Shown one piece after another: positions 361 to 19,922 of a stretch of 64,000 nt of DNA (its first letter is position 1; each line of letters opens with the position of its first letter). This stretch comes from an uncultured Acidobacteriota bacterium. GTDB lineage: Bacteria; Acidobacteriota; Thermoanaerobaculia; UBA5066. The stretch covers positions 115,873 to 179,872 of the forward strand of contig CAWDEX010000002.1 of NCBI GenBank assembly GCA_963801475.1. The letters run 5' to 3'. Under the pieces are notes generated by a model. It searched no databases and had not been told where the DNA came from. It saw only the letters and a program-made list of their open reading frames with translations. A program made the position numbers and the translations under genes.

Positions 361-407
361 GTCCTTCCTCCTCGTTTTCGTTTCGGCTGTTGGCCGCTTC
401 GTAGTAC

Positions 408-423
408 TGCAAGGGGAAGGCCA
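408..423 (-). promoter_or_regulatory. Candidate sigma54 (RpoN) -24/-12 promoter, TGGCCT-N5-TTGCA on the minus strand, driving the repeat-protein gene
   Basis: The rc of 408-423 reads tggccttccccttgca, matching the TGGCAC-N5-TTGCW consensus with GG and GC at the correct spacing. It lies about 45 nt upstream of the ATG at 360. A sigma54-dependent activator gene is immediately adjacent. Confidence 0.5.
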
Positions 424-509
424 GTCCGGACCGTGGTCTCCTATCGCCATATCTCCCAATGAAAACGGGGGGGGCCGACCGCGGAAGGGAAATCTGACGG
501 CCACCGACC

Positions 510-545
510 GGTTGACTTCTTCAACCGCAGTTGACGTTTTCAACC
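510..545. promoter_or_regulatory. Two tandem palindromes (GGTTGA-N5-TCAACC and GTTGA-N5-TCAAC, about 19-bp centre-to-centre) forming a candidate enhancer/UAS for the sigma54 activator
   Basis: The sites are ggttgacttcttcaacc (510-526) and agttgacgttttcaacc (529-545). They sit about 100 bp upstream of the candidate -24/-12 element, in the 3' flank of the NtrC-like gene. Confidence 0.45.
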
Positions 546-555
546 GTACGCCGGA

Positions 556-1929: not shown

Positions 1930-2603
1930 CCCTTTCCGCCCACCGCCGGAAGGGCGATCCTCACCGTCGTCCCCGCGCCCGGCGCGCTCCGGACCTCGAT
2001 GGCTCCCCGGTGAAGGCCCACGATCTGGTGCGCGGCGTAGAGGCCGAGGCCGACGCCGTCGCTCTTCGTCGTCTGGAAGGGACGGAACAGCCGGGTCCGG
2101 AGAAAGTCCTCGGTCATCCCCGGCCCGTCGTCCTCGATCTCGAGGACGGCCTTCCGTCGCCGTCCCCGCCCCTCGGCGTCCGTTCGGACCGAGACCCGCG
2201 CCGCCGCCGCTTCGAGCGCGTTCTCAAGGATGTTCGCCAGGGCCTCCCGGAGGAGGGCCGGGTCTCCCCAGACCTTCGGCGGCTCGCCATAGGCCGCTCC
2301 GACGCTCACGGCGCGTCTGGAAACGTCGGAGGTCCGGAGCAGCTCGCCCAGAAGCTCGTTGACGTCGAGGGGAACCTTGATGAGAACCCCGCCCCGCCGT
2401 CCGGCCCACTGCGTCGCCATGGCGTCGAGCCGCTCGACGGTGCTCCGGAGAAGCTCCGAAACGCTCCGCTTGAACTCCGGGTCGCCGTAGTGCTCGTCGA
2501 GGTTCGAAAGGAGAAGCTGCAGGCGCTGCCCCATGTTCTTCATGTCGTGGAGCAGGACCGAGTCCGCCGCCGCGTGGAGGGGAGGACGCCGCCGCGAGGG
2601 CAT
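1926..2603 (-). CDS. Sensor histidine kinase, truncated (DHp + HATPase_c only, no TM or sensor domain)
   Basis: H-box LLHDMKN. N/G boxes (NILENALEA ... DDGPGM ... GLGLYAAHQIV). 225 aa. Translationally coupled to the regulator gene. Confidence 0.8.
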   Translation of the reverse strand: MPSRRRPPLHAAADSVLLHDMKNMGQRLQLLLSNLDEHYGDPEFKRSVSELLRSTVERLDAMATQWAGRRGGVLIKVPLDVNELLGELLRTSDVSRRAVSVGAAYGEPPKVWGDPALLREALANILENALEAAAARVSVRTDAEGRGRRRKAVLEIEDDGPGMTEDFLRTRLFRPFQTTKSDGVGLGLYAAHQIVGLHRGAIEVRSAPGAGTTVRIALPAVGGKG

Positions 2604-2614
2604 CGGGCCGTTCC

Positions 2615-3427
2615 TCAGGGCGACGCCGCGGCGCCGGCGAAGAGAAGCTGGACGGCCATCCCGGGGCGCATCAGCTTCCTGGGATCCCGCTTGACGCGGA
2701 CCACGACCTGGACCGAGCCGCTTCCGGGGTCGAGGACGGGGCTGACGAACGAAACTCGCCCGGTCGAGCGCGCCTCGGGCAGCTCCTTCGAGACGACCGT
2801 GACCTCCTGCCCGACCTTCACCTTCAGGAGAGCCGGGCCCGGCACGTAGGCCCGGGCCAGGAGCGGCTCGAGCGCGACGACCTTGAAGAGCGGCTTGTTC
2901 TCCTCGAGGAGGACCTTCTCGCCGACCTTGGCGAAACGGTCCGCGACGACGCCGTCGAACGGCGCGCGGACGATCGAGCGGTCGATCACGAGCTGGGCGC
3001 GCTCGAACTCCACGCGAGCCAGCTCGTAGCGGCTCCGCTTCTGCTCGAGCTCGGCCTGGCTGCAGAGGTTCTGGCGGAAGAGCTCCTCGTAGCGCTTGTA
3101 ATCGGCCCGGCTGACGTTCAGCGTCTCCTCCGCCGCCCGGAGGTCGAGGCGGAACTCCCTCTGGTCGATCGTGGCCAGCGGCTGGTTCTTCTGGACCGCG
3201 TCACCCCGCTCGACCTGGAGGCCGTCGATGACGCCCGTCACGCGCGTCGTGACGTTCACTTCCTGGTCCACGACGAGGGTGGCCGCCGCCGCGAGCGGCG
3301 CATCGGCCGGCAGGGGATGCCCGGCCGCGCCGATCGCCGTGACGAGGACGGTCGAAAGGGCCGCGACGGACACCGAAACGCGTGCGCTCGTATCGAACCT
3401 CCGGGATCGGCTCTTTGCCGACATCAT
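2615..3427 (-). CDS. HlyD-family / membrane-fusion (periplasmic adaptor)-like protein, 270 aa, N-terminal membrane anchor
   Basis: This is the C-terminal part of artefactual ORF 2615..6136, starting at MMSAKS. It has a TM anchor, a coiled-coil hairpin (REFRLDLRAAEETL...ELEQKRSRYELARVEFERAQ) and a beta-barrel/lipoyl-like C-terminus typical of HlyD_3. It lies 12 nt upstream of the kinase. Confidence 0.6.
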   Translation of the reverse strand: MMSAKSRSRRFDTSARVSVSVAALSTVLVTAIGAAGHPLPADAPLAAAATLVVDQEVNVTTRVTGVIDGLQVERGDAVQKNQPLATIDQREFRLDLRAAEETLNVSRADYKRYEELFRQNLCSQAELEQKRSRYELARVEFERAQLVIDRSIVRAPFDGVVADRFAKVGEKVLLEENKPLFKVVALEPLLARAYVPGPALLKVKVGQEVTVVSKELPEARSTGRVSFVSPVLDPGSGSVQVVVRVKRDPRKLMRPGMAVQLLFAGAAASP

Positions 3428-3444
3428 ACCGAAGCGGGACGGCT

Positions 3445-4521
3445 TCAAACCTTCCAGTACCACCCCTTCTTCTCGAAGACGAGAAGGACGCCGTACCAGA
3501 AGAGGACCGTGGCGAGGGCGAAGGCGTGCGACCGGAGGGTTGGGTCGCCGATGGCGGAGAAGCCTCCGTAGAGGAACCGGTGGAGGTTCGTCGCCTTCCC
3601 GTCCGCAGCCGTCCACGTCACGAGGCCGAGGATCTTGGCGAGGAGGCCGGAGCCGACGAAGGCAACGAGGGGATTCCGGCCGTACGTGAAGAAGAACCCG
3701 TTCGGGCCGAGCCAGCCGCGGAGGTCGACGGCGACGATCGAGAGGGCCAGCCCCACGCACGCAGAGCCCGACGTGAAGAGGACGTACGAGCCGGTCCAGA
3801 GATTCTTGTTGATCGGGATCCGGAGGTTCCAGAGGAGACCCGCCGCGAGGCCCGCCGCCCCCCAGACGAAGAGCCGCGCCGCCGCTTCCCGGAGACCGGG
3901 GGCCGACTTGCCCTCCCCCTTCCGCGTCAGGACGAAGCCCGCCAGCGTTCCGGTCAGCATCGTGGCGACCGACGTCAGCGTCGAGACGATCCCCTCGGGG
4001 TCCCACTCCTTCTTCCAGAGGTGCCCCCGGAGGAGAGCGAGGTCCACCGCCTTCTGGATGTTCCCCTCCGGTGTCAGGTCGAAGCCGAGTCCCGTCAGGA
4101 GGAACGTGTGGAGCGCCAGAAGGAGGCCCGTCGCCACCCAGAGCCCCGGCACCCTCCGCTTCCAGACCGCGAGGATCAGGAGCGTGCCGAGGACGTAGAC
4201 CACCCCGATTCTCGGCAGGACGCCGGGGATGCGTAGTCGGGCGAGGCGCTCCAGCGTGAAGGGGAACCACGCCATGGCCCAGCCGACGAGGACGATCGTC
4301 ATGCCGCGCGTGACGGCGTGACGGGCGAGGGCGGCGCGCGTGGCGCCGCGGTCCATCCGTTTCGTCAGCGAGAAGACCCCCGCCGTCCCGACGATGAAGA
4401 GGAAGAACGGGAAGATGAGATCCGTCGGCGTCCATCCGTGCCACTCCGCGTGGCCGAAGGGGGGGTAGAGATGCCCCCAGTCGCCGGGGTTGTTGACGAA
4501 GATCATGCCGGCCACGGTCAA
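3445..4521 (-). CDS. Polytopic membrane protein, DUF5009/DUF1624-like (heparan-alpha-glucosaminide N-acetyltransferase-like acyltransferase family)
   Basis: About 10 predicted TM helices and Trp/Phe-rich loops. Family assignment is by overall pattern only. Confidence 0.4.
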   Translation of the reverse strand: MTVAGMIFVNNPGDWGHLYPPFGHAEWHGWTPTDLIFPFFLFIVGTAGVFSLTKRMDRGATRAALARHAVTRGMTIVLVGWAMAWFPFTLERLARLRIPGVLPRIGVVYVLGTLLILAVWKRRVPGLWVATGLLLALHTFLLTGLGFDLTPEGNIQKAVDLALLRGHLWKKEWDPEGIVSTLTSVATMLTGTLAGFVLTRKGEGKSAPGLREAAARLFVWGAAGLAAGLLWNLRIPINKNLWTGSYVLFTSGSACVGLALSIVAVDLRGWLGPNGFFFTYGRNPLVAFVGSGLLAKILGLVTWTAADGKATNLHRFLYGGFSAIGDPTLRSHAFALATVLFWYGVLLVFEKKGWYWKV

Positions 4522-4639
4522 CCCGCGGAAGAAGTCGAGCGAGGCGAAGCGGCCGGGAGGCGGGCCGGGACTCTCTTCGGTGGCGATGCGGCGATGGTAT
4601 CAACGCGCGCGGCGGCCGGCCGGTGGCAAGATCCGGCCG

Positions 4640-6232
4640 ATGGCCCGGACCACGTCCCGCCTCGCCCTCGCCGCGACCGTGGCGCTCTTCGGCCTCTCGG
4701 CCTGCACCATCATCCCGACGGGCCTGACCGTCTCGCCTCCGGACGACGCCGTGGCGCGTCGGGTCGCGAGGATCGCCTCGAAGACACCGGCCCGCCTCGG
4801 CATCGTGGCGCTCCACGTCGAGAGCGGGCGGCGTCTGTCCTGGAACGAGACGGAGAGCTTCGAGGCGGCGAGCGTCATCAAGATCGCCCTCATCGCCGAG
4901 GCCGCCGCCGAGTGGCGGGAGGCCCGCTTCGACCCCAACGACCGGTGGAGGCTGACCGCGGCGTCGAAGGCCGCGGGCTCCGGGATCCTCGGCGAGTTCG
5001 ATCCGGGCCTCATGCCGACGAACCGGGATCTTCTCCGGATCATGATCTCGCTCTCGGACAACACGGCCGCGAACAGCTTCATCGACCGCTTCGGCCCCGG
5101 GGCGGTGAACCGCCGGATGGCGGAGCTCGGGCTCCCCGGAATCCGGCTCATCGGTCGGATTCCCGACGCCGACAAGGAGCCGGAGCGCTGGTCGCCGCTC
5201 GGCCGGATCACCCCCGAGGACACGGCGGAGTACTTCCGACGCCTCTTCGCCGGGACGCTCGTCGACCCGTCCGCGGACTACTTCATGCGGGAGATCTTCC
5301 GGACGCAGCGGACGAAGAACCGGGTCCCGCGCCTCCTCCTCGGGCCAAAGGAGAACCGCTGGGCCGGAAAGACGGGCTCGATGACCGGGATGCGGGGGGA
5401 CGCCGGCGTCCTGACGACGAGGAAAGGGACTTTCGTCCTCGTCGTTCTGGCCGACCGGATCCCGGACGACGACCGGGACGGCTCCGCCGTCACGAGGGCC
5501 ATGGGCGACCTCGCCAAAGCCATCGTGGACGGCTGGTCCGCGACGCTCCCGGACGCGCCCGTCCCTCCGGACGTCAAGCCCGCGCCGACCCTGATGACGG
5601 CCCTGCCCCGGTCGGAGCTGACGCTTCGCGAGGCACGCGCCCGGACAGACGACCCGCTCCTCTTCCGCGTCTTCCGCGACGAGGACCGGCGCTTCTGGCA
5701 GCTCTGGGAGGAAGCCGGCGGGTCGCCCGACGACGCCTGTCTCGTCGCCATGCCCAACTCGTGGTGGGAGGGGTACGGCGCCTCCAAGATCGAGCCTGTC
5801 TCGGCGCTCGTCATTCATCACACCTCCCAGGAGACCGACGAGGAGTGCCTCTCGCTCTTCGCGAAGCCCGAGAGCCAGGTCTCCTCCCACTTCCTCGTCG
5901 GACGCGACGGACGGCTCTGGCAGTTCGTCTCCCTCGAGCACCGGGCGTGGCACGCCGGGCCGTCGCTCCTCCACGGCCGGATCGCCCTGAACCGGACCTC
6001 GATCGGCGTGGAGATCACCGGGGACGGGAACCGGGCCCCCTTCACGGCGGCGCAGGTCGAGACCGTCGTCCGGCTCGTCGGCGTCCTGACGGCCCAGTAC
6101 GGTCTCCAGGCTCCCTGGATCGTCGGCCACGAGCACATTGCCCCGGACCGGAAGAACGATCCGGGGGCCCTCTTTCCCTGGAACGACGTCCTTCGGCGCT
6201 CTCTGACGCTGGCGCGGACGCTCTCGCGGTGA
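4640..6232 (+). CDS. Lipoprotein fusion: N-terminal class A beta-lactamase-like (penicillin-binding fold) domain + C-terminal N-acetylmuramoyl-L-alanine amidase (Amidase_2 / AmpD-PGRP type)
   Basis: Start at MARTTSRLALAATVALFGLSAC (lipobox LSAC), which is M51 of ORF 4490..6232. N-domain motifs are SVIK (SxxK), SDN and KTG, with no ExxLN omega loop. C-domain motifs are HHTS...SSHFLVGRDGRLWQ...AWHAG...IGVEITG...GHEHIAPDRKNDPG, the AmpD zinc-amidase signature. Confidence 0.7.
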   Translation: MARTTSRLALAATVALFGLSACTIIPTGLTVSPPDDAVARRVARIASKTPARLGIVALHVESGRRLSWNETESFEAASVIKIALIAEAAAEWREARFDPNDRWRLTAASKAAGSGILGEFDPGLMPTNRDLLRIMISLSDNTAANSFIDRFGPGAVNRRMAELGLPGIRLIGRIPDADKEPERWSPLGRITPEDTAEYFRRLFAGTLVDPSADYFMREIFRTQRTKNRVPRLLLGPKENRWAGKTGSMTGMRGDAGVLTTRKGTFVLVVLADRIPDDDRDGSAVTRAMGDLAKAIVDGWSATLPDAPVPPDVKPAPTLMTALPRSELTLREARARTDDPLLFRVFRDEDRRFWQLWEEAGGSPDDACLVAMPNSWWEGYGASKIEPVSALVIHHTSQETDEECLSLFAKPESQVSSHFLVGRDGRLWQFVSLEHRAWHAGPSLLHGRIALNRTSIGVEITGDGNRAPFTAAQVETVVRLVGVLTAQYGLQAPWIVGHEHIAPDRKNDPGALFPWNDVLRRSLTLARTLSR

Positions 6233-6258
6233 GCGTCTCTGCGTTACGATCGGGGCCG

Positions 6259-7119
6259 ATGCTCGACGGCCTCCGGCGCCTCGACGATGCGGGCACGGCT
6301 CGCCATTTCCTCGAGCGGCTGCGGGAAGGGATCTACGTCTCGACGCCCGCCGGCGAGATCCTCGACGCGAACCCCGCCTTTCTCGCCATCCTCGGGGCCC
6401 GGACGCTCGAAGAACTCCGGGCGTCGAAGGCAGCGAACTGGCTCGCCGAGCCCGCCCAGCGCGATCGGTGGAAGGAGAGCCTCGACCGGTTCGGATCGGT
6501 CGTCGACTTCGAGCTGAAGGTCCGGCGCCGCGACGGGGAGATCCGCGTCGTCCTCGACACGGCCTGGACGCGCGTGGACCCCGAGTCGGGCGACGTCTAC
6601 TACCACGGGATCCTCACCGACGTGACCGACCGGAAAGAGCTGGAGACGGCGCTCGACGAGCAGGCGCTCCGCGATCCGATCACCGGCTGCTACAACCGCC
6701 GCTACCTCTCGCAGGCGACCCGGGAAGAGCCGCCGCGGGGCTGCGTCGTCGTCGAGGTCGACCGGTCGAAGGCGGAAGAAGCCCTTCCGGACGACGGGTC
6801 GCCCGACCCGGTCGCGAACCGGATCAGCCGCTTCCTGATGCGCCAGTCGCGGGCCGAGACGACGCTCGTGAGGATGCACTCGAACGAGTTTCTCCTTCTC
6901 CTGCGCGAGGCGGACGACAAGACGGTCGCCAACGTCATCGAGCGCCTCGCCTTCTCGGCCTCGCGCGAGCTTCTCCCGCCGTTTTCCGTCGGCGGGTCGA
7001 CCCGCGAGGAGAGCGAGCCCCTGACCGAGGCGATCCGGCGGGCGCGGGAGAACCGGACGGAGGTTTCGTCGGCCACCGGACCCGGCCGCAAACCGTCCGG
7101 CATCTACCCGCTCCCCTGA
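6259..7119 (+). CDS. PAS-domain protein with a degenerate GGDEF domain (GGDEF replaced by HSNEF; likely non-catalytic)
   Basis: This is the C-terminal part of ORF 4318..7119, starting at MLDGLRRL. The PAS core LREGIYVSTPAGEILDANPAFLAILG is paralogous to the 10604 gene. RxxD-like and LMRQ motifs are retained but the GGDEF motif is replaced by HSNEF. Confidence 0.7.
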   Translation: MLDGLRRLDDAGTARHFLERLREGIYVSTPAGEILDANPAFLAILGARTLEELRASKAANWLAEPAQRDRWKESLDRFGSVVDFELKVRRRDGEIRVVLDTAWTRVDPESGDVYYHGILTDVTDRKELETALDEQALRDPITGCYNRRYLSQATREEPPRGCVVVEVDRSKAEEALPDDGSPDPVANRISRFLMRQSRAETTLVRMHSNEFLLLLREADDKTVANVIERLAFSASRELLPPFSVGGSTREESEPLTEAIRRARENRTEVSSATGPGRKPSGIYPLP

Positions 7120-7120
7120 C

Positions 7121-9433
7121 GTGACCGACGCCCGGAGCCCCGGCGACGCCGGGTCGTCGCCCGGCGTGACGCCGGTCCTCCCGGTCCGTCTCTGCCTCGG
7201 GCTCGTCTCCTTCGCGCTCGCCGCCTACCAGATCGCCCTGACGCGGGTCTCGTCCGTCCTCGTCTACACGCAGACGACCTTTCTCGTCCTCTCCGTCTCG
7301 ATTGCCGCCATCGGCGTCGGTGCCGCCGCGGTTCACTGGTGGAGGGCGCGCCCGGGACGGTCGGTCACGCCCGCCCAGATCCGGCGCTTCGCCCTTCTGA
7401 CCGGCCTCTCGGCCGCGCTGGCCTGGGTGCTCGTGGTCCGGGCGAAGGTCGCTTTCGAAGCCGGCGTCTTCGCTCTCCCCTTCCTCTTCGCCGGTGCCTG
7501 CCTGGCGACCGCCTACGTCTGGATCGGCGGGCGCGCCTCGCTGACCTACGCTTTCGAGCTGGCGGGAGGGGCGGCCGGCGTGGCCACCGCGCTGCTCCTT
7601 CTCCCCGAGATCGGCGACGTCAACACCGGGCTCGTCGCGGCCAGCCTGGCCGGCCTCGCGGCGCTCCCGCTCTCCGCCGCCGGGTTCCGCGCGGTGCCCG
7701 GCCTCGTCGCAGCGGCGCCGGCGGCCCTGCTCCTCGTGAACCTGGCCGTCCCCGGCGGCGTCCTCGTCGTCGACCCGTACGCCGTCGTGACGTTCGAGCC
7801 GCACCTCGTCTGGCAGACGGGGCCGCACCACGGTCGCGTCACGGCCACGGCGTACGACGACTTCGCCCGCACCGATCTCGTGGAGACGGACGAGCCCTGG
7901 GTGAGGTACCTCTACACCGACCGGATGTACACCGCCCGCGTCGTCCGCTGGGACGGACGCTCGCCCCGCTTCGATGACCCCGAGCCCGAGCGGCTGGCGG
8001 CCTTGAAGGCCCTCCCGTTCCGCCGCGGCGCGCCGAAGAAGGTCCTGGTCCTCGGCGCCGGTGGCGGCTTCGACGTGGCGCTGGCCCTCCAGGGGGGTGC
8101 GACGGACGTGACGGCCGTCGAGATCAACCGCGCGACGATCCGCTTCACGCGCGGTCTGGCCGATTTCTCCGGCCGGATCTACGACCGGAGTGACGTCCGG
8201 GTCATCCGGGCGGACGCACGGCGCTTTCTCAGGGACTCCGCGGAGCGGTACGAACTGATCGAGCTGTCGCTCCTGCAGAACGACCCGTCGGAAGGGCGCA
8301 GCAACGTCGCCCGCCAGAACTGGGTCTTCACCGTCGAGGCGATGGAGGCCTACCTCGAGCATCTCGCTCCGGGCGGGGCCATCGCCGTCGTGCAGAACGG
8401 CGAGGAGCTGGCCGACAAGACCGTCGCGACGGCGCTCGAAGCCTTCCGGCGCCTCGGCCTCGCGGAGATGGCGGCGATGAGGGGGTTCCTGATCCTGACG
8501 TCGGGCGCCTCGGACGAGAACCCCTTCTCCGACCTCGTCCTGATCTGGAGAGAACCCGTGCCGTCCGGGCGCGTGTCACAGCTTCTTGCCGGCGCCGGAC
8601 CCGGAATCAAGGTGCGCTTCGCTCCCGGAGGGCCGGCGGCCGAGCCTTTCCGGAGCCTCGCATCCGGCGAGACGACGCTGGCCTCCTGGGTTGCACGGAG
8701 TGGAGCGGACCTGACCCCTGCGACGGACGAGTCGCCCTTCTTCTTCAACCTCGAGCGAAACGCGGGGTCGGGGTGGGTCCGGCTCGGCGAAGCCTGTCTC
8801 GTTTTCGTCGCCCTGCTCGCGGCCGCCGACACGCTTCGTCGGCGCGAGGGCGCCGGCCGCCTTCCCCTGCCGGGGTGGGGGGCGGGCGCCGCTCTCGGCC
8901 TCGGATTCATCTTCCTGCAGGCCGGGCTGATCCACCGCGCCCATTTCCTCCTCGGCAATCCGACGCTCGCGGTCGCGCTCGGCGTCGGCGGCATGTTCGT
9001 CTTCGGAAGCCTCGGTGCGCTCCTCGCCGTGCGGTTCCAGAGCCTCGCCGCCTCATGGCGGCTTGCCCTCCTCGCGGCGGCGACGGCCGCGGCCCTCGTC
9101 GAGTCGGCGAGTCGATGGGAGCGCGTCTCCGGCGCCTCCGCCGGCAAGGGAGACGCCGCCCTCCTCCTCGCGCTCGCCGGCCTCTTCGTGCTGCCCACGA
9201 TCGCCGCGGGCGCCTGCTTCCCCGCCGTGATCGAGCGCTGGGCCGGACCGAGACAGCGGGCGGCGGCGGCCGTCTACGCGGCGGACGGCCTCGCCTCGGT
9301 GGCGGGCGGGGCGCTCGCGGCGGTCGCGGCGCTCCATTTCGGCATCCGCAGCCTCTTCGTCGCCGCGATCACCTGCTACGTGCTCTGCGCCCTCCTCGCC
9401 CTCGTCCCGGGGCGCCGGCCCGTCACGCCCTGA
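7121..9433 (+). CDS. Polytopic membrane protein with an internal spermidine/spermine-synthase-like (aminopropyltransferase/MTase-fold) domain
   Basis: N- and C-terminal multi-TM regions. The central domain carries VLVLGAGGGFDVALAL...DVTAVEIN (Rossmann-like SAM/dcSAM site). Overlaps the previous stop by 1 nt. Confidence 0.55.
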   Translation: MTDARSPGDAGSSPGVTPVLPVRLCLGLVSFALAAYQIALTRVSSVLVYTQTTFLVLSVSIAAIGVGAAAVHWWRARPGRSVTPAQIRRFALLTGLSAALAWVLVVRAKVAFEAGVFALPFLFAGACLATAYVWIGGRASLTYAFELAGGAAGVATALLLLPEIGDVNTGLVAASLAGLAALPLSAAGFRAVPGLVAAAPAALLLVNLAVPGGVLVVDPYAVVTFEPHLVWQTGPHHGRVTATAYDDFARTDLVETDEPWVRYLYTDRMYTARVVRWDGRSPRFDDPEPERLAALKALPFRRGAPKKVLVLGAGGGFDVALALQGGATDVTAVEINRATIRFTRGLADFSGRIYDRSDVRVIRADARRFLRDSAERYELIELSLLQNDPSEGRSNVARQNWVFTVEAMEAYLEHLAPGGAIAVVQNGEELADKTVATALEAFRRLGLAEMAAMRGFLILTSGASDENPFSDLVLIWREPVPSGRVSQLLAGAGPGIKVRFAPGGPAAEPFRSLASGETTLASWVARSGADLTPATDESPFFFNLERNAGSGWVRLGEACLVFVALLAAADTLRRREGAGRLPLPGWGAGAALGLGFIFLQAGLIHRAHFLLGNPTLAVALGVGGMFVFGSLGALLAVRFQSLAASWRLALLAAATAAALVESASRWERVSGASAGKGDAALLLALAGLFVLPTIAAGACFPAVIERWAGPRQRAAAAVYAADGLASVAGGALAAVAALHFGIRSLFVAAITCYVLCALLALVPGRRPVTP

Positions 9434-10562
9434 CCACCCCGAGCCCCGGGCCCTTCGGCTCCTGCCACACTCCCTCCACGATCGCCAGGCCCTTGAAGGG
9501 ATCGTTCGAGATGAGGAGGTTCCCGTCGAGGTCGAGCCAGTCGTAGAGCGGCGCCACGGCGACGCCGGCCGCGATGCCGAGCGACGACTCGATCATGCAG
9601 CCGAGCATCAGCTTGAAGCCGAGAGCGCGCCCGAGGGCCGCCATCTCGTAGGCCCTCGTGATCCCCCCGCACTTGGCGAGCTTGACGTTGATTCCGTCGA
9701 AGAGCCCGGCGAGCGACGGGACGTCCCCCGGGTGGAGGACCGACTCGTCCGCGACGAGCGGGAGCGGCGACGCGGCCTTCACCGCCCCCATCGCCGCGTT
9801 CTTCGACGCGGGCATCGGCTGCTCCACGAACTCGATTCCCATCGTGGCGAGCCACTTGATCCGCGAGATCGCCTCCTCGGGCGTCTGCCATCCCTCGTTG
9901 GCGTCGACGCGGATCGGCTTGCCCGTCACCGCCCGGATGGCCCGGACGTTCTGCTCGTCGGTCGGGAGCCCGACCTTCACCTTCAGCGACGGGTACCTCT
10001 CTCCTTCCTTCACCTTCTGCTGCATGACCTCGGGACTGTCGATGCCGATCGTGAAGGTCGTCACCGCCATCCGGTTCGCCGGCACCCCGAGGAGGCGGTG
10101 AACGGGGACGCCGAGCTTCTTCCCCTTCCAGTCCCAGAGGGCCATGTCCAGCGCCGCCACGATCTGCGAATCGGCGCCCGCCTCCTTCTCGGCCCGCTCG
10201 AGCCAGGCGAGGTGCTCCCACGGCGCAAGCCCCTCGACGGCCTTCTTCACGCGGGCGAAGGCCGCCTCGCCCGAATCCCAGCTCTGGCCGTAACGGACGT
10301 TCGCCGCCGCCTCGCCCAGGCCGGTGACGCCGTCCGCCGTGAACGTGACGAGGCCGTTCTTCTTCTCGGTCGACGAGTTGCGGGAAATGGTCCAGGTGTG
10401 CGTCAGCTTCAGCTCGAGCGGCGAGAGAGAGAGGGCCGGCTTTCCGGCCGACGGCGCGGTCGCGGCGGCCTGCGAGGCGAGGGCGGCTTCGGGGAGAAAG
10501 GCCCCGGTCGCCAGCGCGGCGGAGCCCCGGAGGAGGGAGCGGCGGGAGAGGTCGCCCGGCAT
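9423..10562 (-). CDS. Enolase-superfamily dipeptide epimerase (L-Ala-D/L-Glu epimerase-like, MR/MLE family) with a twin-arginine (Tat) signal peptide
   Basis: N-terminus SRRSLLRGSAALATGAF...ALA. MR_MLE motifs KVKVG, VDANEGW, and a KxK/D/E/D metal-site pattern. The convergent 3' end overlaps gene 7121..9433 by 11 nt. Confidence 0.75.
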   Translation of the reverse strand: MPGDLSRRSLLRGSAALATGAFLPEAALASQAAATAPSAGKPALSLSPLELKLTHTWTISRNSSTEKKNGLVTFTADGVTGLGEAAANVRYGQSWDSGEAAFARVKKAVEGLAPWEHLAWLERAEKEAGADSQIVAALDMALWDWKGKKLGVPVHRLLGVPANRMAVTTFTIGIDSPEVMQQKVKEGERYPSLKVKVGLPTDEQNVRAIRAVTGKPIRVDANEGWQTPEEAISRIKWLATMGIEFVEQPMPASKNAAMGAVKAASPLPLVADESVLHPGDVPSLAGLFDGINVKLAKCGGITRAYEMAALGRALGFKLMLGCMIESSLGIAAGVAVAPLYDWLDLDGNLLISNDPFKGLAIVEGVWQEPKGPGLGVVRA

Positions 10563-10603
10563 GGGGCCATTATCGCCCGCGAGCAGGGTACGATTTCCGC
10601 ACC

Positions 10604-11461
10604 GTGACTTCCTCCCTGTCGCTCGAGGATCCGGAGAATCTCCGGCGCTTCGTCCGTTCGCTCCGCGAGGGGATCTACGTTTCGACGCCGGACGGGCGGG
10701 TCCTCGAAGGGAACCCGGCGTTCTTCCGGATGTTCGGGGTTTCCTCGCTCGAGGAGCTGGGGCGCGTGCCCGACGTCCTCGTGGACCCCGCCGCGCGCGA
10801 GCGCGAGCTCGAACTGCTGGCCCACGACGGGGTCGTGAGGGATTTCGAGTTCCAGATCCGGCGGAAGGACGGCGAGATCCGGACGGTCATCGACACCTGC
10901 TACGTCTGCGGCGACGCCGCCACCGGCGAGAAGTTCTTCCACGGCATCCTGATCGACATCACGGACCGCAAACGCCTCGAGGAGCAGCTGCGCGACCAGA
11001 TCCTCCGTGATCCGCTGACCGGCTCCTTCAACCGCCGTTTTCTCGCCCAGTTCGCGGCGGCGCACGATCCGATCGGCGGCACCTGGGGCTGCATCATGGT
11101 CGACGTGGACGGCTTCAAGCTCTACAACGACCGGTTCGGGCACGCCGCCGGCGACGCCGTCCTGACGAAGCTCTCGCGCTTCCTGATGCGCCAGACCCGG
11201 GCCGAGGAGGTCGTCGTCCGGATGGGCGGCGACGAGTTCCTCGTCATCCTTCCCGGCGCCGACGACACCGGGACGGAGAACGTCGTCGGCCGCCTGAAGA
11301 CCGAAGCCGAGGCGGAGCGGCTCGTTCCCTTCTCGATGGGCTGGGCCACCCGCGCGGAGCGAGAGCCCCTGGAGCGGACGATCATGCGGGCCGACCGGCG
11401 GATGATCAGCGTGAAGAACGAGACCTCCGGGACCGTCGGCCTCCCGCGCCGCCGGGACTGA
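10604..11461 (+). CDS. PAS-GGDEF diguanylate cyclase (intact GGDEF)
   Basis: PAS motif LREGIYVSTPDGRVLEGNPAFFRMFG. A-site RMGGDEFLVILPG. I-site-like RxxD. Paralog of 6259..7119. Confidence 0.8.
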   Translation: MTSSLSLEDPENLRRFVRSLREGIYVSTPDGRVLEGNPAFFRMFGVSSLEELGRVPDVLVDPAARERELELLAHDGVVRDFEFQIRRKDGEIRTVIDTCYVCGDAATGEKFFHGILIDITDRKRLEEQLRDQILRDPLTGSFNRRFLAQFAAAHDPIGGTWGCIMVDVDGFKLYNDRFGHAAGDAVLTKLSRFLMRQTRAEEVVVRMGGDEFLVILPGADDTGTENVVGRLKTEAEAERLVPFSMGWATRAEREPLERTIMRADRRMISVKNETSGTVGLPRRRD

Positions 11462-11498
11462 CCGGAGCGCGGACCGTCGGGCGAGGCAGAATCGTCCC

Positions 11499-13307
11499 AT
11501 GCGCCGCGCCCTCCGCGCCCTTCCGCTCGCCGCCTTCCTCGTCCCCCTTCGCCTCGCCGCCCTCCCGCCCGAGGCGCCGTCCGCCGCCGCGCTCTCACCC
11601 GCCGTCGTCACGGCCGCGATCGAGAACCTCTATGCCCGGCCCGACGAGACGGGTCCCGTCGACTCGCAGGCGATCCTCGGCGACCGGGTCGAGGTGCTGG
11701 AGCAGACCGCCGGCTTCGCGAGGGCCCGGACCGCGGACGGCAACATCGCATGGATTCCCGAGCGCTCGATCCTCCGACGCGATGTCCCTCCCGCCGCCGG
11801 CGCGAAGGTCGCTCGCGTCACGTCGAACTTCGCACACGTCTACTCGTCCCCCTCCTTCACCAGGACGCGTCCGCTCCTCACCGCCCCGGTCGGGGCCCGA
11901 TTGGCTTATTCGGGGTTCCTGGAAGCCAAGGAGGGCGATTCCTGTTCGTGGGTCCGCGTGGCCCTGCCCGACGGGCGCGACGGGTTCGTCGCCGCCCGCG
12001 ACGTGGCGCTCCTGCCCTTCGACGAGATTCCCCCGCTTCGGTCTCCCGACGCCTGGATCGCCTTCGGCAAGCGCTTCCTCGGCGCGCCGTACACGTGGGG
12101 CGGGACGACGCCCGCCGGATTCGACTGCTCGGGCCTGATCCAGCGGATCTTCTCGGAACATGGCGTGACGCTGAGGCGCAACAGCTACGAACAGGCGTTC
12201 CAGGATCCGCAGCTCGTCCCGGTCGCCGCCGAGACCCTTCGCCCCGGCGATCTCCTCTTCTTCGGGACGGAGGACAGGATCGATCACGAGGCGATGTGGC
12301 TGGGGGACGGGACGGTCCTCCAGGCCACACGCCACAACGTCCCGGGCGTGCAGATCACCCCCTTCGACAGCCCGTTCCTGAAGCCCGTCTTCCGGTACGC
12401 CCGGAGATTGAAGAGCTCTTCAAAGAAAAGTCCGGCGCCCGGCCTCACCCCGGCGAAGTCGCGCGGCCTCGAGGCCGTCCTTCGGGGGATCGCGGCTTCG
12501 AGCGGCGCCCGCTTCGGCATCGTCGTCAAGGACCTGACCACCGGCCAGTCCCTCTCCCTGAATCCGTCTCTCAGCATGCACGCCGCGAGCACCATGAAGA
12601 CGCCGGTGATGCTCGAGGTGCTTCGACGCGTGGATGAAGGATCCCTGAAGCTGTCGGACGAGCTGCTCGTGAAGAACGAGTTCCGGTCGGTCGTCGACGG
12701 GTCGACCTTCTCGATCGGGGCCGACGGCCTCGACCCCGAGGACGAAGGGCCCACGCTGGCGCTGCTCGGGAAGAGCGCATCGCTCGAGTTCCTCGTGAAG
12801 GAGATGATCGTCCGATCCTCGAACCTCGCGACGAACGTCGTCCTCTCGTTCGTCGGCCCGGAGGCCGTCCAGAGGTTCATGGACGCCCTCGGCGCTCCGA
12901 CGGTGAAGGTCCGCCGGTGCGTGGAGGACTCGAAGGCCTACGAGAAGGGGCTCAACAACGAGACAGACGCCGCCGGGATGGGCGCCGTCATGGAGGCGGC
13001 CGTGAGGTCGCCGAAGCTGTCGGCTGCTTCGAGAGCGAAGGCCTGGGAGATCCTGACGGGACAGGTGTTCAACGAGCAGATTCCGGCAGGGCTCCACCCG
13101 CAATCGGGGGCCGTCGTCGGCCACAAGACGGGGTCGATCTCCTCCGTGCAGCATGACGCGGCCGTGGTCCGCCTTCCCGACGGACGGGAATACGTCCTCG
13201 TCATCCTCGCGAACGACTTTGGCGCGAACGAGACCGGGCGGGGGCGCGTCGTCGAGGCGTCGCGGAAGATCTCCCGCGCGGTGTGGGAGGCGATGATCGC
13301 TCCCTGA
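11499..13307 (+). CDS. Secreted multidomain cell-wall hydrolase: 2x SH3b + NlpC/P60 (CHAP-like Cys peptidase) + C-terminal class A beta-lactamase-like domain
   Basis: Signal peptide present. NlpC/P60 motifs YTWGGTTPAGFDCSGLIQRIF ... H. C-domain motifs STMKT (SxxK), SSN, EKGLNNE (E166/N170-like omega loop) and HKTGS (KTG). Confidence 0.75.
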   Translation: MRRALRALPLAAFLVPLRLAALPPEAPSAAALSPAVVTAAIENLYARPDETGPVDSQAILGDRVEVLEQTAGFARARTADGNIAWIPERSILRRDVPPAAGAKVARVTSNFAHVYSSPSFTRTRPLLTAPVGARLAYSGFLEAKEGDSCSWVRVALPDGRDGFVAARDVALLPFDEIPPLRSPDAWIAFGKRFLGAPYTWGGTTPAGFDCSGLIQRIFSEHGVTLRRNSYEQAFQDPQLVPVAAETLRPGDLLFFGTEDRIDHEAMWLGDGTVLQATRHNVPGVQITPFDSPFLKPVFRYARRLKSSSKKSPAPGLTPAKSRGLEAVLRGIAASSGARFGIVVKDLTTGQSLSLNPSLSMHAASTMKTPVMLEVLRRVDEGSLKLSDELLVKNEFRSVVDGSTFSIGADGLDPEDEGPTLALLGKSASLEFLVKEMIVRSSNLATNVVLSFVGPEAVQRFMDALGAPTVKVRRCVEDSKAYEKGLNNETDAAGMGAVMEAAVRSPKLSAASRAKAWEILTGQVFNEQIPAGLHPQSGAVVGHKTGSISSVQHDAAVVRLPDGREYVLVILANDFGANETGRGRVVEASRKISRAVWEAMIAP

Positions 13308-13422
13308 CGCGGCGGCGCCCTCCCGGCCACGCGGCCGCTTCTCCCGCAGCGCCCGCCGGCCGGCGTCGGCGCGGGATCCAATTGAGATACAATCTCTGTA
13401 TCACCATTACGAGGGAGAATTC

Positions 13423-13899
13423 ATGAATCGAGTCGTCCGCTCCACACTGCTGCTCTGCGTCACCCTGGCCGCCTTCTCCGCCCTCGCCGCCGGACCGGCC
13501 GCGCCGAAGCACGGGCTCATGACGGTCGACGGCGCCTGGGTCAAGGCGATGCTCGCGAACGACGCCGCCGCATGCGCCGCCCTCTACGCGGACGACGCCG
13601 TTCTCGTCCTCCCCGGGTCCGGCGCCATCAAAGGAAGAAAGGCGATCGCGGACGCCTACGCGGGCTGGCTCAAGGACGTGAAGGTGACGGACGCCGCCGT
13701 CATGGACTCCCACTACCGCTCGGCCGGCCACGTCTCGGCGGGGTGGGGCGCCTGGAAGGTCACGACGGTGCCGAAGGCGGGCGGCTCGCCGAAGACGGAG
13801 ACCGGGACCTGGAGTGCGGTCGCCGTCGAAAAAGACGGGGCCTGGAAGTACGTCTCCGATCACGCCTCGGCCGACCCCCCGCCGCCCGCGACGAAGTAG
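13423..13899 (+). CDS. Secreted SnoaL-like / DUF4440 (NTF2-fold) protein
   Basis: Signal peptide. NTF2-like pattern (DAAACAALYADDAVLVLPG...KGRKAIADAY). Confidence 0.45.
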   Translation: MNRVVRSTLLLCVTLAAFSALAAGPAAPKHGLMTVDGAWVKAMLANDAAACAALYADDAVLVLPGSGAIKGRKAIADAYAGWLKDVKVTDAAVMDSHYRSAGHVSAGWGAWKVTTVPKAGGSPKTETGTWSAVAVEKDGAWKYVSDHASADPPPPATK

Positions 13900-13902
13900 C
13901 CG

Positions 13903-14475
13903 CTACTCGATCGTCCCGCCGCCCCGGGCCTGCTCGATCCGCGCGGACGCCTCGAGCTCCCAGTTGGCCGGCCCGCGCGTCTGCGAGGCGAGCTTCCCCT
14001 CGGGGCCGTAGAACATCGTCTCGAGGGGTCTCTTGCACCCGAGTTTTTCCGAGGTGTCTCCCGTCGGATCCACGTAAAACGTGTCGGGGGCGGGGGGAAC
14101 GAGCCGGGTTTCCGAGAGCCACCGGTCGAGTGTCGCGAAATCGGCCTTCCTCGCGATCAGGACCCAGTCGAGGCCGCGGTCGGCCTTCAGCGTCTCCTGC
14201 GTGTGGAAAAGGGCGGCCAGCTCCTCCGGGGCGCCGGGAACTCCCGGCGAGAAGAAGTGGATGATCAGGACCTTCCCCGGGCGGCCCACGAGATTCCGCT
14301 CGGAGCCGTCGCGGCGTCCGACCATCAGACGTCCCCCCGCGTCGAGGTTCAGCATCCCGTGGTCGTGATCGGGGTGGGAGGCGGGGACGAGGGAGGCCCA
14401 ATACGAGAAGGCGAACAGAAGGGCGGCGAGGAGGAACCCCCCGCCAAGGGCCAGGCGTCGCTGTTTCGGCGTCAT
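13903..14475 (-). CDS. Thioredoxin-fold (TlpA/redoxin-like) membrane-anchored protein lacking the CxxC motif
   Basis: N-terminal TM. The segment KVLIIHFFSPGVPGAPEEL sits where WCxxC is expected. Similarity is fold-level only. Confidence 0.35.
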   Translation of the reverse strand: MTPKQRRLALGGGFLLAALLFAFSYWASLVPASHPDHDHGMLNLDAGGRLMVGRRDGSERNLVGRPGKVLIIHFFSPGVPGAPEELAALFHTQETLKADRGLDWVLIARKADFATLDRWLSETRLVPPAPDTFYVDPTGDTSEKLGCKRPLETMFYGPEGKLASQTRGPANWELEASARIEQARGGGTIE

Positions 14476-14502
14476 CGGGGCGATTCTAAGCGGCGGAGCG
14501 CC

Positions 14503-15423
14503 TCAGTGCGGAGACGAGGGCGGAGGCGCCTCCTCCGGCCCGCCGACGACCGCCTCCGTCTCGACGCGGAAGCTCTTCGGCCTCCCGAACTCGAAGCGGA
14601 ATCCCGAGGCGATCCGGAAGAAGAGGATCGCTTTCCCGTTCACGTCGAGGTCGACGCGGCACGGAAACCACGAGCCCGGGCCGAGCCGGACGGCGCGGTA
14701 GACCATCCGGGCCTCCTTCACGTTCGCCGCAAGGCCCCCTCCGACCTTGAGATTCTTCGTCAGGTGCGCCTCGAGGGAGAGGATCTGGAGGTCGGAGGCG
14801 TCGATGACCACTCGCCCTGCCATCGAGGCGAAGGTCTTTTCCATGAGGGAGCGGACCGGGAGATTCGGCCGGGGGACGAAGTCGAGGACGTAGACGGGCC
14901 GCTCGTCGAGGATCTCCTCGGCCACGAAGCGGAGCTCGTACCGGCCGAGGATGTCCGAGAGGCGGTGGTTGTCGAACATCGGGTCGTCGTCGTCGTCCGA
15001 GGCCTTCGGGAGGGATGCGGCGCGCCGTGCGGCCCGCTCTTCGATCCGGCGGTGCCGCTTCGCGTCCTCCTCCGCGGCTTCGCGAATCTCGTCCGCCGTC
15101 GCCGGCCGCCCGTCCACCTCAACGAGGTCGCGCGACTCCGGGTGCCCCCCCTCCCCGGCGAGGACGTAGTAGAGGCGGCGGTGGATCTCCTTCGGACGCC
15201 CCTCCTTGTCGAACGTCGTCCGGACGTCGACGACGTCGTACGTCGAGCCCCCCCACCGTCTTTCCATGGCCCGCTGGTTCTTCGCGACGAGGCGGGCGAT
15301 CTCGTCCGGGTCGATCGGCGGCACGACCGGCGCGGCACACGCCGCCGCCGCCGCGAAGCCGAACGAGGCGGCGAGAAGCGTCCCCGCGAGGCGCCATGAA
15401 CGGTGCGGAGGGAGATCGCGCAC
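14503..15423 (-). CDS. Hypothetical secreted protein (signal peptide; acidic DDDDD linker)
   Basis: Clean ORF with an N-terminal signal. No recognisable motif. Confidence 0.4.
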   Translation of the reverse strand: MRDLPPHRSWRLAGTLLAASFGFAAAAACAAPVVPPIDPDEIARLVAKNQRAMERRWGGSTYDVVDVRTTFDKEGRPKEIHRRLYYVLAGEGGHPESRDLVEVDGRPATADEIREAAEEDAKRHRRIEERAARRAASLPKASDDDDDPMFDNHRLSDILGRYELRFVAEEILDERPVYVLDFVPRPNLPVRSLMEKTFASMAGRVVIDASDLQILSLEAHLTKNLKVGGGLAANVKEARMVYRAVRLGPGSWFPCRVDLDVNGKAILFFRIASGFRFEFGRPKSFRVETEAVVGGPEEAPPPSSPH

Positions 15424-15473
15424 CCGTTCACTATACGGCGCGAGGCGGATACGATCACCCGGAGGAGGCGCCG

Positions 15474-16337
15474 ATGCGGGTCGTCGTGACGGGCGGAACG
15501 GGATTCATCGGCCGGCGGCTCGTCGGAAGGCTCCGCGACGCGGGACACGACGCCGTCGTACCCCCGCGCGGCGTCATCACCGGCGTGGACGGCGCCGACG
15601 CCGTCGTCCACCTCGCGGGCGAGAACGTGGCCCAGCGGTGGACGTCCTCGGCGAAGGAGCGGATCGAGCGGAGCCGCGTGGACGGGACGCTGCGTCTCGT
15701 CGGGGCGATGGGAGGAGCGAAGAGGAAGCCTCCGGTCCTCGTCGCCGCCTCGGCGGTCGGCTACTACGGCGCCCGCGGCGACGAGGAGCTGGACGAGGAG
15801 ACCCCGCCGGGGAGCGACTTTCTCGCCCGGACCTGCGTGGCGTGGGAGGCGGCGGCTTCCGCGGCCGAGGCCTTCGGAATCCGGGTAGTCCGCCTTCGGA
15901 TCGGCGTCGTCCTCGCCGCCGACGGCGGCGCGCTCGCGAAGATGCTCCCGGCCTTCCGGGCCTTCGCGGGAGGTCCGGTCGGATCGGGGAGCCAGTGGAT
16001 GTCGTGGATCCATCGGGACGACCTCGTCGAGCTGTTCCTCTTCGCGCTGTCGAACGCCGCCGTCTCGGGCGCCCTCAACGCAACGGCACCGCGGCCTGTC
16101 CGGAACCGCGAGTTCGCCGCGTCCCTGGGACAGGCGATCCATCGCCCGGCCCTCGTGCCGGCCCCGGCAGCCGCCGTGAAGCTCCTCTTCGGCGAGATGG
16201 CGACGATGGTCCTCGACGGACAGCGCGCCGTGCCGAAACGGGCGCTCGGCTTCGGCTTCCGCTTCCGGTTCCCGGAGCTCTCCGTCGCGCTCGACGACGT
16301 ATTCGCCCGCCCCGGCGAAGCCCCTACTCCGGCGTGA
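15474..16337 (+). CDS. TIGR01777-family NAD-dependent epimerase/dehydratase (YfcH-like, C-terminal DUF1731)
   Basis: Starts at MRVVVTGGTGFIGRRL, which is M154 of ORF 15015..16337. Short-chain Rossmann fold. The C-terminal pattern is typical of YfcH. Confidence 0.8.
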   Translation: MRVVVTGGTGFIGRRLVGRLRDAGHDAVVPPRGVITGVDGADAVVHLAGENVAQRWTSSAKERIERSRVDGTLRLVGAMGGAKRKPPVLVAASAVGYYGARGDEELDEETPPGSDFLARTCVAWEAAASAAEAFGIRVVRLRIGVVLAADGGALAKMLPAFRAFAGGPVGSGSQWMSWIHRDDLVELFLFALSNAAVSGALNATAPRPVRNREFAASLGQAIHRPALVPAPAAAVKLLFGEMATMVLDGQRAVPKRALGFGFRFRFPELSVALDDVFARPGEAPTPA

Positions 16338-19446: not shown

Positions 19447-19512
19447 CCCGGGCCGCTTCCGGCCGCCGATTCGAGGAAAGGAGCCGAGTCCTCCGTCGGG
19501 GACCCGGGGCCT

Positions 19513-19908: not shown

Positions 19909-19922
19909 TCCGTCCTCCGTTC

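Follow-up and report, generated by a model that had tools for sequence, protein, structure and literature searches.

We analysed a 64,000-nucleotide stretch, referred to below as the window, of contig CAWDEX010000002.1 (assembly GCA_963801475.1, positions 115,873 to 179,872 of the forward strand) from an uncultured Acidobacteriota bacterium of the class Thermoanaerobaculia. An earlier note made from the sequence alone had described, at positions 4640-13307 of the window, two PAS-GGDEF genes that each sit beside a cell-wall hydrolase gene and together flank a gene for a Tat-exported dipeptide epimerase, and our analysis confirmed this gene cluster. With a probability of about 0.6, we consider positions 3445-13307 to be one lineage's version of a Thermoanaerobaculia/Holophagales-type cluster for the salvage or catabolism of peptidoglycan stem peptides outside the cytoplasm, operonically tied to the synthesis of cyclic diguanosine monophosphate (c-di-GMP). 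Its two hydrolases are fusion proteins: the amidase fusion (Bla::AmpD) joins a class A beta-lactamase-fold (Bla) domain to an AmpD-type amidase, and the endopeptidase fusion (NlpC/P60::Bla) joins an SH3b-NlpC/P60 peptidase to a second Bla-fold domain. Gene content, domains, catalytic-residue states, export signals, synteny and operon geometry were read directly from the window and its relatives, and they give the cluster a well-supported catabolic role.

The window has ~70% G+C, and mechanical open reading frame (ORF) lists of it are full of spurious frames; genes were called with the help of the G+C content at third codon positions (GC3). GC3 values of 0.88-0.95 pick out eight genuine genes, from 3445-4521 on the minus strand through 13423-13899 on the plus strand (Table 1). 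All genes of the earlier note are present where it had placed them, and its domain assignments were recovered by Pfam above threshold, with NCBIfam concurring at the family level, except for an aminopropyltransferase-like label that is taken up below. The epimerase gene does lie between the two hydrolase genes, with the correction that it is on the minus strand, opposite to its neighbours. Forty-seven loci from species-representative genomes were fetched and all window proteins were mapped onto them by tblastn. The core order NagX-like (-), Bla::amidase (+), epimerase (-), NlpC/P60::Bla (+) is conserved in these 47 loci, down to ~52% protein identity, and the co-localisation that the earlier note had wished to see checked is therefore kept. 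In several loci from long-read metagenome-assembled genomes (MAGs; L003, L042, L043 and L044, also L017 and L041), the epimerase, GGDEF, Bla::amidase or endopeptidase gene was recovered in two tblastn pieces, which may be either assembly frameshifts or pseudogenes. Three records (L045, P0196 and P0274) are labelled 'Gammaproteobacteria', 'Acidithiobacillales' and 'Methylococcaceae', labels that probably reflect mis-binning and not horizontal transfer.

The amidase fusion matched Pfam Beta-lactamase2 (166 bits) and Amidase_2 (113 bits). Its product consists of a signal peptide, a lipobox with Cys22, a PBP-A-like domain at residues 54-270 (nt 4799-5449), a connector at residues ~300-385 and an amidase domain at residues 386-509 (nt 5795-6166), and the lipobox is found in 38 of 41 orthologs. 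The closest PDB sequences were 4EWF, PBP-A, AmiD and AmpDh2, with the amidase domain scoring 79 bits to the AmiD/AmpDh2 group. Residues H393/H394, E458, H497, K505 and D507 are the same in all 63 sequences compared and correspond to AmiD residues; judged by alignment, the domain carries the zinc ligands and the catalytic Glu/Lys of the Amidase_2 (AmpD/AmiD) family. An AlphaFold2 model built from the 63-member family alignment reached a mean pLDDT of 91.4 and a pTM of 0.87, values suggesting that the two domains and the connector are held in a fixed arrangement, and Foldseek matched this model to 4EWF, LRA-5 and PBP-A. The connector (nt ~5540-5795) is itself strongly conserved (R343, D349, F352, W353, G360, G361, L368, P372, W376) and is confidently modelled as a series of short helices and strands; it lies outside Pfam coverage, has no assigned family and may form an interface between the domains. 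More than 100 protein clusters contain the amidase fusion, all of them belonging to bins of Acidobacteriota that carry the names Thermoanaerobaculia or Holophagales. When 1.84 billion representatives were searched exhaustively with phmmer, only two clusters at 50% identity span both domains, and among the 150 best-scoring representatives the fusion of Beta-lactamase2 with Amidase_2 is confined to the Thermoanaerobaculia/Holophagales clade. The other multi-stretch matches turned out to be tandem Beta-lactamase2 or tandem Amidase_2 proteins, and independent fusions elsewhere were discarded on these grounds.

In the Bla-fold domains of both fusions, the acylation motifs SxxK, SxN and KTG are invariant across 41 Bla::AmpD and 31 NlpC/P60::Bla orthologs, appearing as S70xxK, SDN and KTG in the first family and as STMK, SSN and KTG in the second. 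The position of Glu166, located by alignment to the TEM-1 sequence, is occupied by Ile or Leu in the 41 Bla::AmpD proteins and by Val in the 31 NlpC/P60::Bla proteins, where the alignment is ambiguous by one residue, with an adjacent Glu at 167. This Val aligns with Leu158 of PBP-A, which was located by comparing wild-type 2J7V with the L158E mutant 2J9O. Against the NCBIfam bla_class_A equivalog the two domains scored 86.3 and 98.4 bits, under the cut-off of 200. Both domains have the class A fold and its acylation motifs without Glu166, the combination that characterizes PBP-A-like proteins, and the reading as a true beta-lactamase was rejected on the state of Glu166 and on the NCBIfam scores. 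PBP-A is a DD-carboxypeptidase/endopeptidase (PMC11189452); the soil protein LRA-5 carries Val166, and its beta-lactamase activity is of no biological significance unless the V166E mutation is made (PMC12777564). Because the acylation residues are kept, Glu166 is absent and PBP-A and LRA-5 offer precedents, both domains are probably penicillin-binding DD-peptidases of the PBP-A type. The earlier note had seen in them D-Ala-D-Ala sensing or binding modules, a role that fits poorly with the catalytic look of domains in which all acylation residues remain.

The endopeptidase fusion matched Pfam SH3_16/SH3_3, NLPC_P60 (79 bits) and Beta-lactamase2 (159 bits), with a faint match to SH3_YKFC_2nd. 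A signal peptide is followed by a first SH3b domain at residues 43-91 (nt 11625-11771), a second SH3b domain, an NlpC/P60 domain at residues 195-301 (nt 12081-12401) and a PBP-A-like domain at residues 340-570 (nt 12516-13208), and more than 680 homologs have the same architecture. PDB matches were 3H41 (YkfC), 3PVQ (DPP VI) and 2J7V (PBP-A). The equivalents of Cys238 and His291 are kept in 31 of 31 orthologs, with Gln and not His as the third residue, and the protein thus combines the SH3b-SH3b-NlpC/P60 architecture of YkfC-type peptidases with the Cys-His dyad. The bond cleaved is likely that between gamma-D-Glu and the diamino acid. A homology search with the 602-residue product also returned a database protein, P0121, that is 100% identical to it.

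The epimerase matched Pfam MR_MLE_N/C, close homologs carry the PGAP name 'dipeptide epimerase', and its best PDB match was the Bacteroides dipeptide epimerase 3IJI (245 bits). The motifs LKVKVG, VDANEGW, VEQP, ADES, KLAKCGG and DLDGN all align with 3IJI and include the KxK motif, the second catalytic Lys, the metal ligands and the C-terminal DxD motif for the dipeptide amine. The window protein extends beyond the 3IJI chain by ~43 residues at its N-terminus. In this extension the Tat signal reads SRRSLLRGSAALATGAFLPEAALA and is followed by SQ; the Pfam TAT_signal match scored 18.5 bits, under the cut-off of 22.7. The motif (S/T)RRxLL is present in essentially all orthologs of the 47 loci and in 113 of 114 full-length database homologs. 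With an h-region and an AxA cleavage site behind this motif, the epimerase is predicted to be exported by the Tat pathway. Besides the lipobox and the Tat motif, hydrophobic segments at the N-terminus, seen by hydropathy scanning, count among the export signals of the cluster.

In nearly all related loci the amidase fusion is adjoined by the NagX-like gene, whose window product has six hydrophobic segments and scored 123.8 bits against NCBIfam NagX_SO_3504, under the equivalog cut-off of 480. NagX is a proposed transmembrane glucosamine acetyltransferase related to the Tannerella N-acetylmuramic acid (MurNAc) transporter TfMurT (PMC9007349). Just beyond the NagX-like gene, ~25 loci carry genes for MurQ (MurNAc-6-P etherase), which scored above its NCBIfam cut-off, and for a short NagA-like deacetylase (for example L039 6588-11587, L037 5638-7394 and L031 5967-6968); the corresponding position in the window is occupied by a sigma-54 two-component system and an HlyD-like gene. 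On the other side of the cluster, most relatives have a gene for an EamA/DMT-family transporter between the NlpC/P60::Bla and SnoaL-like genes (for example L013 15533-16429), which is absent from the window (13308-13422), L002 and L003. The EamA/DMT protein could be the missing transporter of the pathway.

The two PAS-GGDEF proteins of the window align along their whole length at 45% identity (E = 2e-77) and share the PAS core LREGIYVSTP.G..L..NPAF, as the earlier note had observed. A hydropathy scan found no hydrophobic or transmembrane segment in either of them, and on that account both are considered cytoplasmic. The copy 37 nt 5' of the endopeptidase fusion matched Pfam PAS and GGDEF (85 bits) and TIGR00254 (101.6 bits, cut-off 37.4), its PDB matches are diguanylate cyclases, and it has RAEE in place of a canonical RxxD I-site. 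Like all single-copy orthologs, it retains the motifs GG(D/E)EF and Dx(L/V)D...FKxxND of active cyclases. The copy 26 nt 3' of the amidase fusion matched PAS_9 (33.6 bits), GGDEF (24.7 bits) and TIGR00254 (28.5 bits, under the cut-off of 37.4). In it GGDEF has become HSNEF and the substrate/metal motif DxDxFKxYND is lost, so that a GGDEF fold devoid of cyclase activity is expected. These intergenic distances agree with the 27 and 38 bp of the earlier note, which had been counted as start minus end.

The two-copy state is common to the window and loci L001-L003 only, always with HS[NS]EF and a lost substrate/metal motif in the copy behind the amidase fusion and with an intact second copy, and the comparison of loci indicates that the ancestral state is one intact PAS-GGDEF copy after the amidase fusion. 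Because the degenerate copy is conserved despite the loss of its catalytic residues, it is probably a regulatory partner. The earlier note had read the two gene pairs as duplicated modules. Duplication is limited to the PAS-GGDEF gene and to the subclade of the window, and the Bla-fold domains of 4640-6232 and 11499-13307 are mutually 25% identical; duplication of a whole module was rejected. The start codons of the epimerase gene and the intact PAS-GGDEF gene diverge across 41 nt (10563-10603), a distance that leaves no room for two conventional promoters; one of them at least must therefore lie within the neighbouring coding sequence.

Of the 44 informative loci, 40 have a GGDEF gene beside the amidase fusion; the other three of the 47 are truncated. 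In Thermoanaerobaculia-type loci this is one small PAS-GGDEF gene with intact motifs, ~60 nt after the fusion. The Holophagales-type loci, and with them the divergent L039, have a larger (PAS-)GAF-PAS-GGDEF gene in front of the fusion. In all nine loci with the large type, down to ~54% identity, its TGA stop codon and the start codon of the hydrolase gene overlap by 4 bp, which by its geometry is an arrangement for translational coupling. L039 has no epimerase or endopeptidase fusion nearby and keeps MurQ-NagA-GGDEF-Bla::amidase. The large and small GGDEF proteins match each other with 57-61 bits, and each matches the unrelated GGDEF protein of 16324-19446 with 50-66 bits; since the two types are no closer to each other than to this third protein, separate recruitments of two unrelated GGDEF lineages are suggested. 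Outside the cluster, the 818 kb of fetched DNA contained no GGDEF ORF other than the gene at 16324-19446 and its ortholog in L003. The third gene lies on the minus strand 3 kb downstream of the cluster and encodes a protein of 1040 residues with Reg_prop repeats, Y_Y_Y and GGDEF domains. The pairing with diguanylate cyclases, which the earlier note had singled out, is therefore non-random, and cyclase and pathway are very probably expressed together.

What we infer from these observations is the nature of the substrates, the order of the steps, what the cyclase senses or controls and the mechanism of c-di-GMP coupling. The DD-peptidase domain of the membrane-anchored lipoprotein would trim D-Ala-D-Ala ends and/or open 4-3 cross-links, and its AmiD/AmpDh2-type zinc amidase would strip the peptide off MurNAc. 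The secreted SH3b-SH3b-NlpC/P60 peptidase with its second PBP-A-type domain would then cut gamma-D-Glu-diamino acid bonds, and the Tat-exported epimerase would convert L-Ala-D-Glu into L-Ala-L-Glu, a form usable by ordinary peptidases and transporters. The amino sugar would be handled by the NagX/MurT-family protein, joined in many relatives by the adjacent MurQ and NagA. A cytoplasmic PAS or GAF-PAS cyclase co-transcribed with the amidase fusion would tie expression of the pathway to c-di-GMP production, and its sensor domain could plausibly read a pathway-related cytoplasmic signal. In the lineage of the window, the cyclase gene was duplicated; the intact copy moved to a place before the endopeptidase fusion, and the copy at the ancestral position lost its catalytic residues. 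The material digested may stem from turnover of the cell's own wall or from exogenous necromass.

Several observations weigh against this pathway. The epimerase scored higher with NCBIfam DgcA (N-acetyl-D-Glu racemase) than with YcjG (234 and 158 bits; YcjG cut-off 343), both scores being under the equivalog cut-offs. In the endopeptidase fusion, the residue equivalent to Asp256 (BcYkfC numbering) is Asn in 31 of 31 orthologs, as part of an RNS motif found in 117 of 120 homologs, and the equivalent of Tyr118 is Glu, Ser, Thr, Asn or Ala and never Tyr in the 31 orthologs, with the SH3b alignment being less certain. Asp256 and Tyr118 bind the free L-Ala amino group and define the YkfC subfamily, whose substrates need a free N-terminal L-Ala (PMC2954226), and strict membership of that subfamily was rejected on their states. 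The gamma-D-Glu-meso-diaminopimelic acid (mDAP) endopeptidase of the earlier note keeps an NlpC/P60 domain with a Cys-His dyad and lacks both YkfC-defining residues. MurQ and NagA are absent from the 64-kb window. Synteny in many loci extends to the SnoaL-like gene, two hypothetical genes and the two-component system, so part of the conservation reflects shared descent. Every relative is a metagenome bin of a single clade, and the evidence consists of sequence and predicted structure. As for the cyclases, loci L004, L019, L029 and L033 have no GGDEF gene, and the association amounts to two or three evolutionary events only. A search of window positions 1-20000 returned no c-di-GMP riboswitch or other known RNA element, even at E values up to 1, and the locus contains no recognisable c-di-GMP effector. 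The cyclases are cytoplasmic and the enzymes exported, so that any coupling is indirect.

Part of this would be expected if the GGDEF genes were passengers of common descent and operon drift, with no link to peptidoglycan, and the window copies were ordinary paralogs. A whole neighbourhood of ~15 kb including unrelated genes is syntenic in many loci, the four loci that lost the GGDEF gene kept the enzymes, neither riboswitch nor effector was found, and GGDEF-rich bacterial genomes often have such genes scattered in operons. Passengers do not readily explain why two unrelated GGDEF lineages stand at different positions relative to one gene, or why the 4-bp overlap is present in all nine loci, including L039, where the GGDEF-amidase pair survives without the epimerase and endopeptidase genes. 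The low density of GGDEF genes in the flanking DNA and the retention of the degenerate copy under conservation also argue against passengers, and we regard this alternative as unlikely, while giving it the most weight among those considered.

A second alternative keeps the cyclases as regulators and changes the role of the enzymes: the fusions would be autolysins that remodel the cell's own sacculus in growth, division or biofilm transition, with their activity or level set by c-di-GMP. Amidase, DD-endopeptidase and DL-endopeptidase are classical autolysin activities, the lipoprotein is anchored beside the sacculus, an NlpC/P60 domain lacking the free-peptide residues of YkfC might act on polymeric peptidoglycan, and cyclase and hydrolase share one operon. 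However, a Tat-exported dipeptide epimerase is sensible only on free dipeptide products, the neighbouring MurQ, NagA and NagX genes are catabolic or salvage genes, and no division or elongation genes are nearby. Because the epimerase would act on free dipeptides and the neighbours are sugar-catabolic, we prefer stem-peptide salvage and consider remodelling rather unlikely. Of the 'murein remodelling/recycling' proposed by the earlier note, peptidoglycan metabolism and salvage are retained and remodelling is set aside.

The same enzymes could also be lytic weapons exported against neighbouring bacteria, with the other genes consuming the debris. All of the enzymes have export signals, several bond specificities are combined in one polypeptide, and the organisms live in soil and have salvage genes adjacent to the hydrolases. 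Against this, the lipobox tethers the amidase fusion to the membrane of its producer, Sec and Tat signals in a diderm cell deliver to the periplasm only, and the locus contains no secretion system, toxin-delivery domain or immunity gene, which makes this explanation improbable. A locus for beta-lactam resistance or sensing, with the cell-wall enzymes and cyclases as its response arm, is most improbable of all: source databases label both proteins 'beta-lactamase class A', and penicillin would probably acylate both domains with their class A fold and SxxK, SxN and KTG motifs, but all orthologs have Ile/Leu or Val at the Glu166 position, a state in which LRA-5 (Val166) confers no resistance until V166E, the NCBIfam class A equivalog gives the two domains 86-98 bits, well short of its cut-off, and no BlaR/BlaI-type or AmpR-type regulator is nearby.

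Table 1. Genes of the cluster and its downstream flank, in window coordinates.
Feature	Position	Strand	Basis or remark
NagX/MurT-family polytopic membrane protein, putative glucosamine N-acetyltransferase or MurNAc transporter	3445..4521	-	divergent from amidase fusion gene
Lipoprotein fusion of PBP-A-like domain and AmiD/AmpDh2-like amidase, 530 aa	4640..6232	+	Pfam, PDB sequences, AlphaFold2, Foldseek
Degenerate cytoplasmic PAS-GGDEF paralog	6259..7119	+	Pfam, alignment to intact copy
Polytopic membrane protein with weakly spermidine-synthase-like centre	7121..9433	+	sub-threshold Pfam, hydropathy
Tat-signal dipeptide (L-Ala-D/L-Glu-type) epimerase, enolase superfamily	9423..10562	-	MR_MLE_N/C, 3IJI alignment
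Cytoplasmic PAS-GGDEF diguanylate cyclase, intact motifs	10604..11461	+	Pfam, TIGR00254, PDB matches
Secreted SH3b-SH3b-NlpC/P60 and PBP-A-like fusion, 602 aa	11499..13307	+	Pfam, PDB matches
SnoaL-like gene of the downstream region	13423..13899	+	GC3 support

Among the remaining genes, the membrane protein that the earlier note had called aminopropyltransferase-like does show weak similarity to Spermine_synth, at 17.6 bits and thus under the cut-off of 22.9, with an NCBIfam score of 27 against a cut-off of 472. Hydropathy scanning gave ~13 hydrophobic segments for it. The gene was found in the window and in L002 only among the 47 mapped loci, and with its sub-threshold domain match it was rejected as a component of the system; its distribution indicates that it is a lineage-specific insertion outside the conserved system. 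A further genuine gene at 2615-~3400 on the minus strand (GC3 ~0.97) is buried in a spurious ORF of 1173 residues and is missed by simple ORF filters. It lies between a histidine-kinase fragment (1926-2603) and the NagX-like gene, and its translation resembles an HlyD-type membrane-fusion (efflux adaptor) protein. Downstream of the cluster, the genes at 13903-14475 and 14503-15423, both on the minus strand, have no Pfam or NCBIfam match and are syntenic with the cluster in both locus types; by eye, the product of the first resembles a membrane-anchored thioredoxin-fold protein. No further cell-wall genes were found in the remainder of the 64-kb window.

The logic of the proposed pathway is known from YkfABC, MpaA-YcjG, AmiD and PBP-A. 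In YkfA-YkfB-YkfC of Bacillus subtilis and B. cereus, MpaA-YcjG-PepD of Escherichia coli, and 3IJI with DPP VI (3PVQ) of Bacteroides thetaiotaomicron, the stem peptide is cut and the dipeptide is then epimerised, and the cluster likewise has a homolog of SH3b-NlpC/P60 gamma-D-Glu-diamino-acid peptidases beside an enolase-superfamily epimerase. The ykfB-ykfC pairing is a known murein-peptide pathway that has been noted in Acidobacteria too (PMC2954226). The cluster differs in its Tat-signalled epimerase, as YkfB has no signal peptide (PMC2954226) and the 3IJI chain has no such extension, in a peptidase that lacks Tyr118/Asp256 and is fused to a PBP-A-like domain, and in the addition of the amidase fusion and a diguanylate cyclase. 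Its Bla-fold domains share their fold (TM scores of 0.8-0.9 over the target), the SxxK, SxN and KTG motifs and a hydrophobic residue at the Glu166 position with LRA-5 and the PBP-A of Thermosynechococcus elongatus, at ~24-31% identity; those proteins have a single catalytic domain, whereas the cluster domains are fused to an amidase or to NlpC/P60. AmiD of E. coli and AmpDh2/AmpDh3 of Pseudomonas aeruginosa are nearest to the amidase domain and have the zinc and catalytic residues and the lipoprotein signal in common with it, while the N-terminal DD-peptidase-type domain, the connector of ~80 residues and the cyclase gene alongside distinguish the cluster protein.

Likeness to the MurNAc and glucosamine salvage modules, Tannerella MurT-MurK-MurQ and NagX-NagA, lies in the NagX/MurT-family protein beside MurQ and NagA in about half of the related loci. 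The window has no MurQ/NagA, its NagX-like protein scores far under the equivalog cut-off, and the stem-peptide enzymes and the cyclase of the cluster are not part of those systems. A link between the state of the envelope or peptidoglycan and cyclase output is made by YfiBNR, in which the membrane cyclase YfiN answers to periplasmic YfiR and to YfiB, a lipoprotein that binds peptidoglycan. In contrast, the cyclases of the cluster are soluble PAS/GAF-PAS proteins that are very probably co-transcribed with catabolic hydrolases, and no YfiB or YfiR homolog is known from the cluster. The searchable literature yielded no published description of the two Bla2 fusions, of consistent Tat export of such a Glu epimerase or of an operonic cyclase with muropeptide recycling, in line with the remark of the earlier note that the pairing is not a known system.

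Peptidoglycan is a large soil pool of organic nitrogen and carbon, and the enzymes with which uncultured Acidobacteria process it are essentially unknown. The cluster suggests a complete disassembly line for stem peptides outside the cytoplasm, including export of the step that epimerises a D-amino-acid dipeptide, which the E. coli and B. subtilis models place in the cytoplasm. The fusions give PBP-A/LRA-5-like proteins a physiological context, which bears on the origin of class A beta-lactamases and on their soil 'precursors'. The recurrent, translationally coupled cyclase offers a testable link between the metabolism of cell-wall fragments and c-di-GMP signalling. As a speculative extension on which we would not bet, the PAS/GAF-PAS cyclases might sense peptidoglycan metabolites derived from the pathway, such as MurNAc-6-P, N-acetylglucosamine-6-P (GlcNAc-6-P), D-Glu, mDAP or stem-peptide fragments, which would make the cluster a signalling-and-feeding unit leading from cell-wall debris to c-di-GMP. 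If true, these Acidobacteria would be able to switch lifestyle (attachment, matrix, hydrolase output) on sensing necromass or the turnover of their own wall, the fusions would show that PBP-A/LRA-5-like 'beta-lactamase precursors' have a physiological role as DD-peptidases that process stem peptides, and the family of the epimerase would gain its first periplasmic member.

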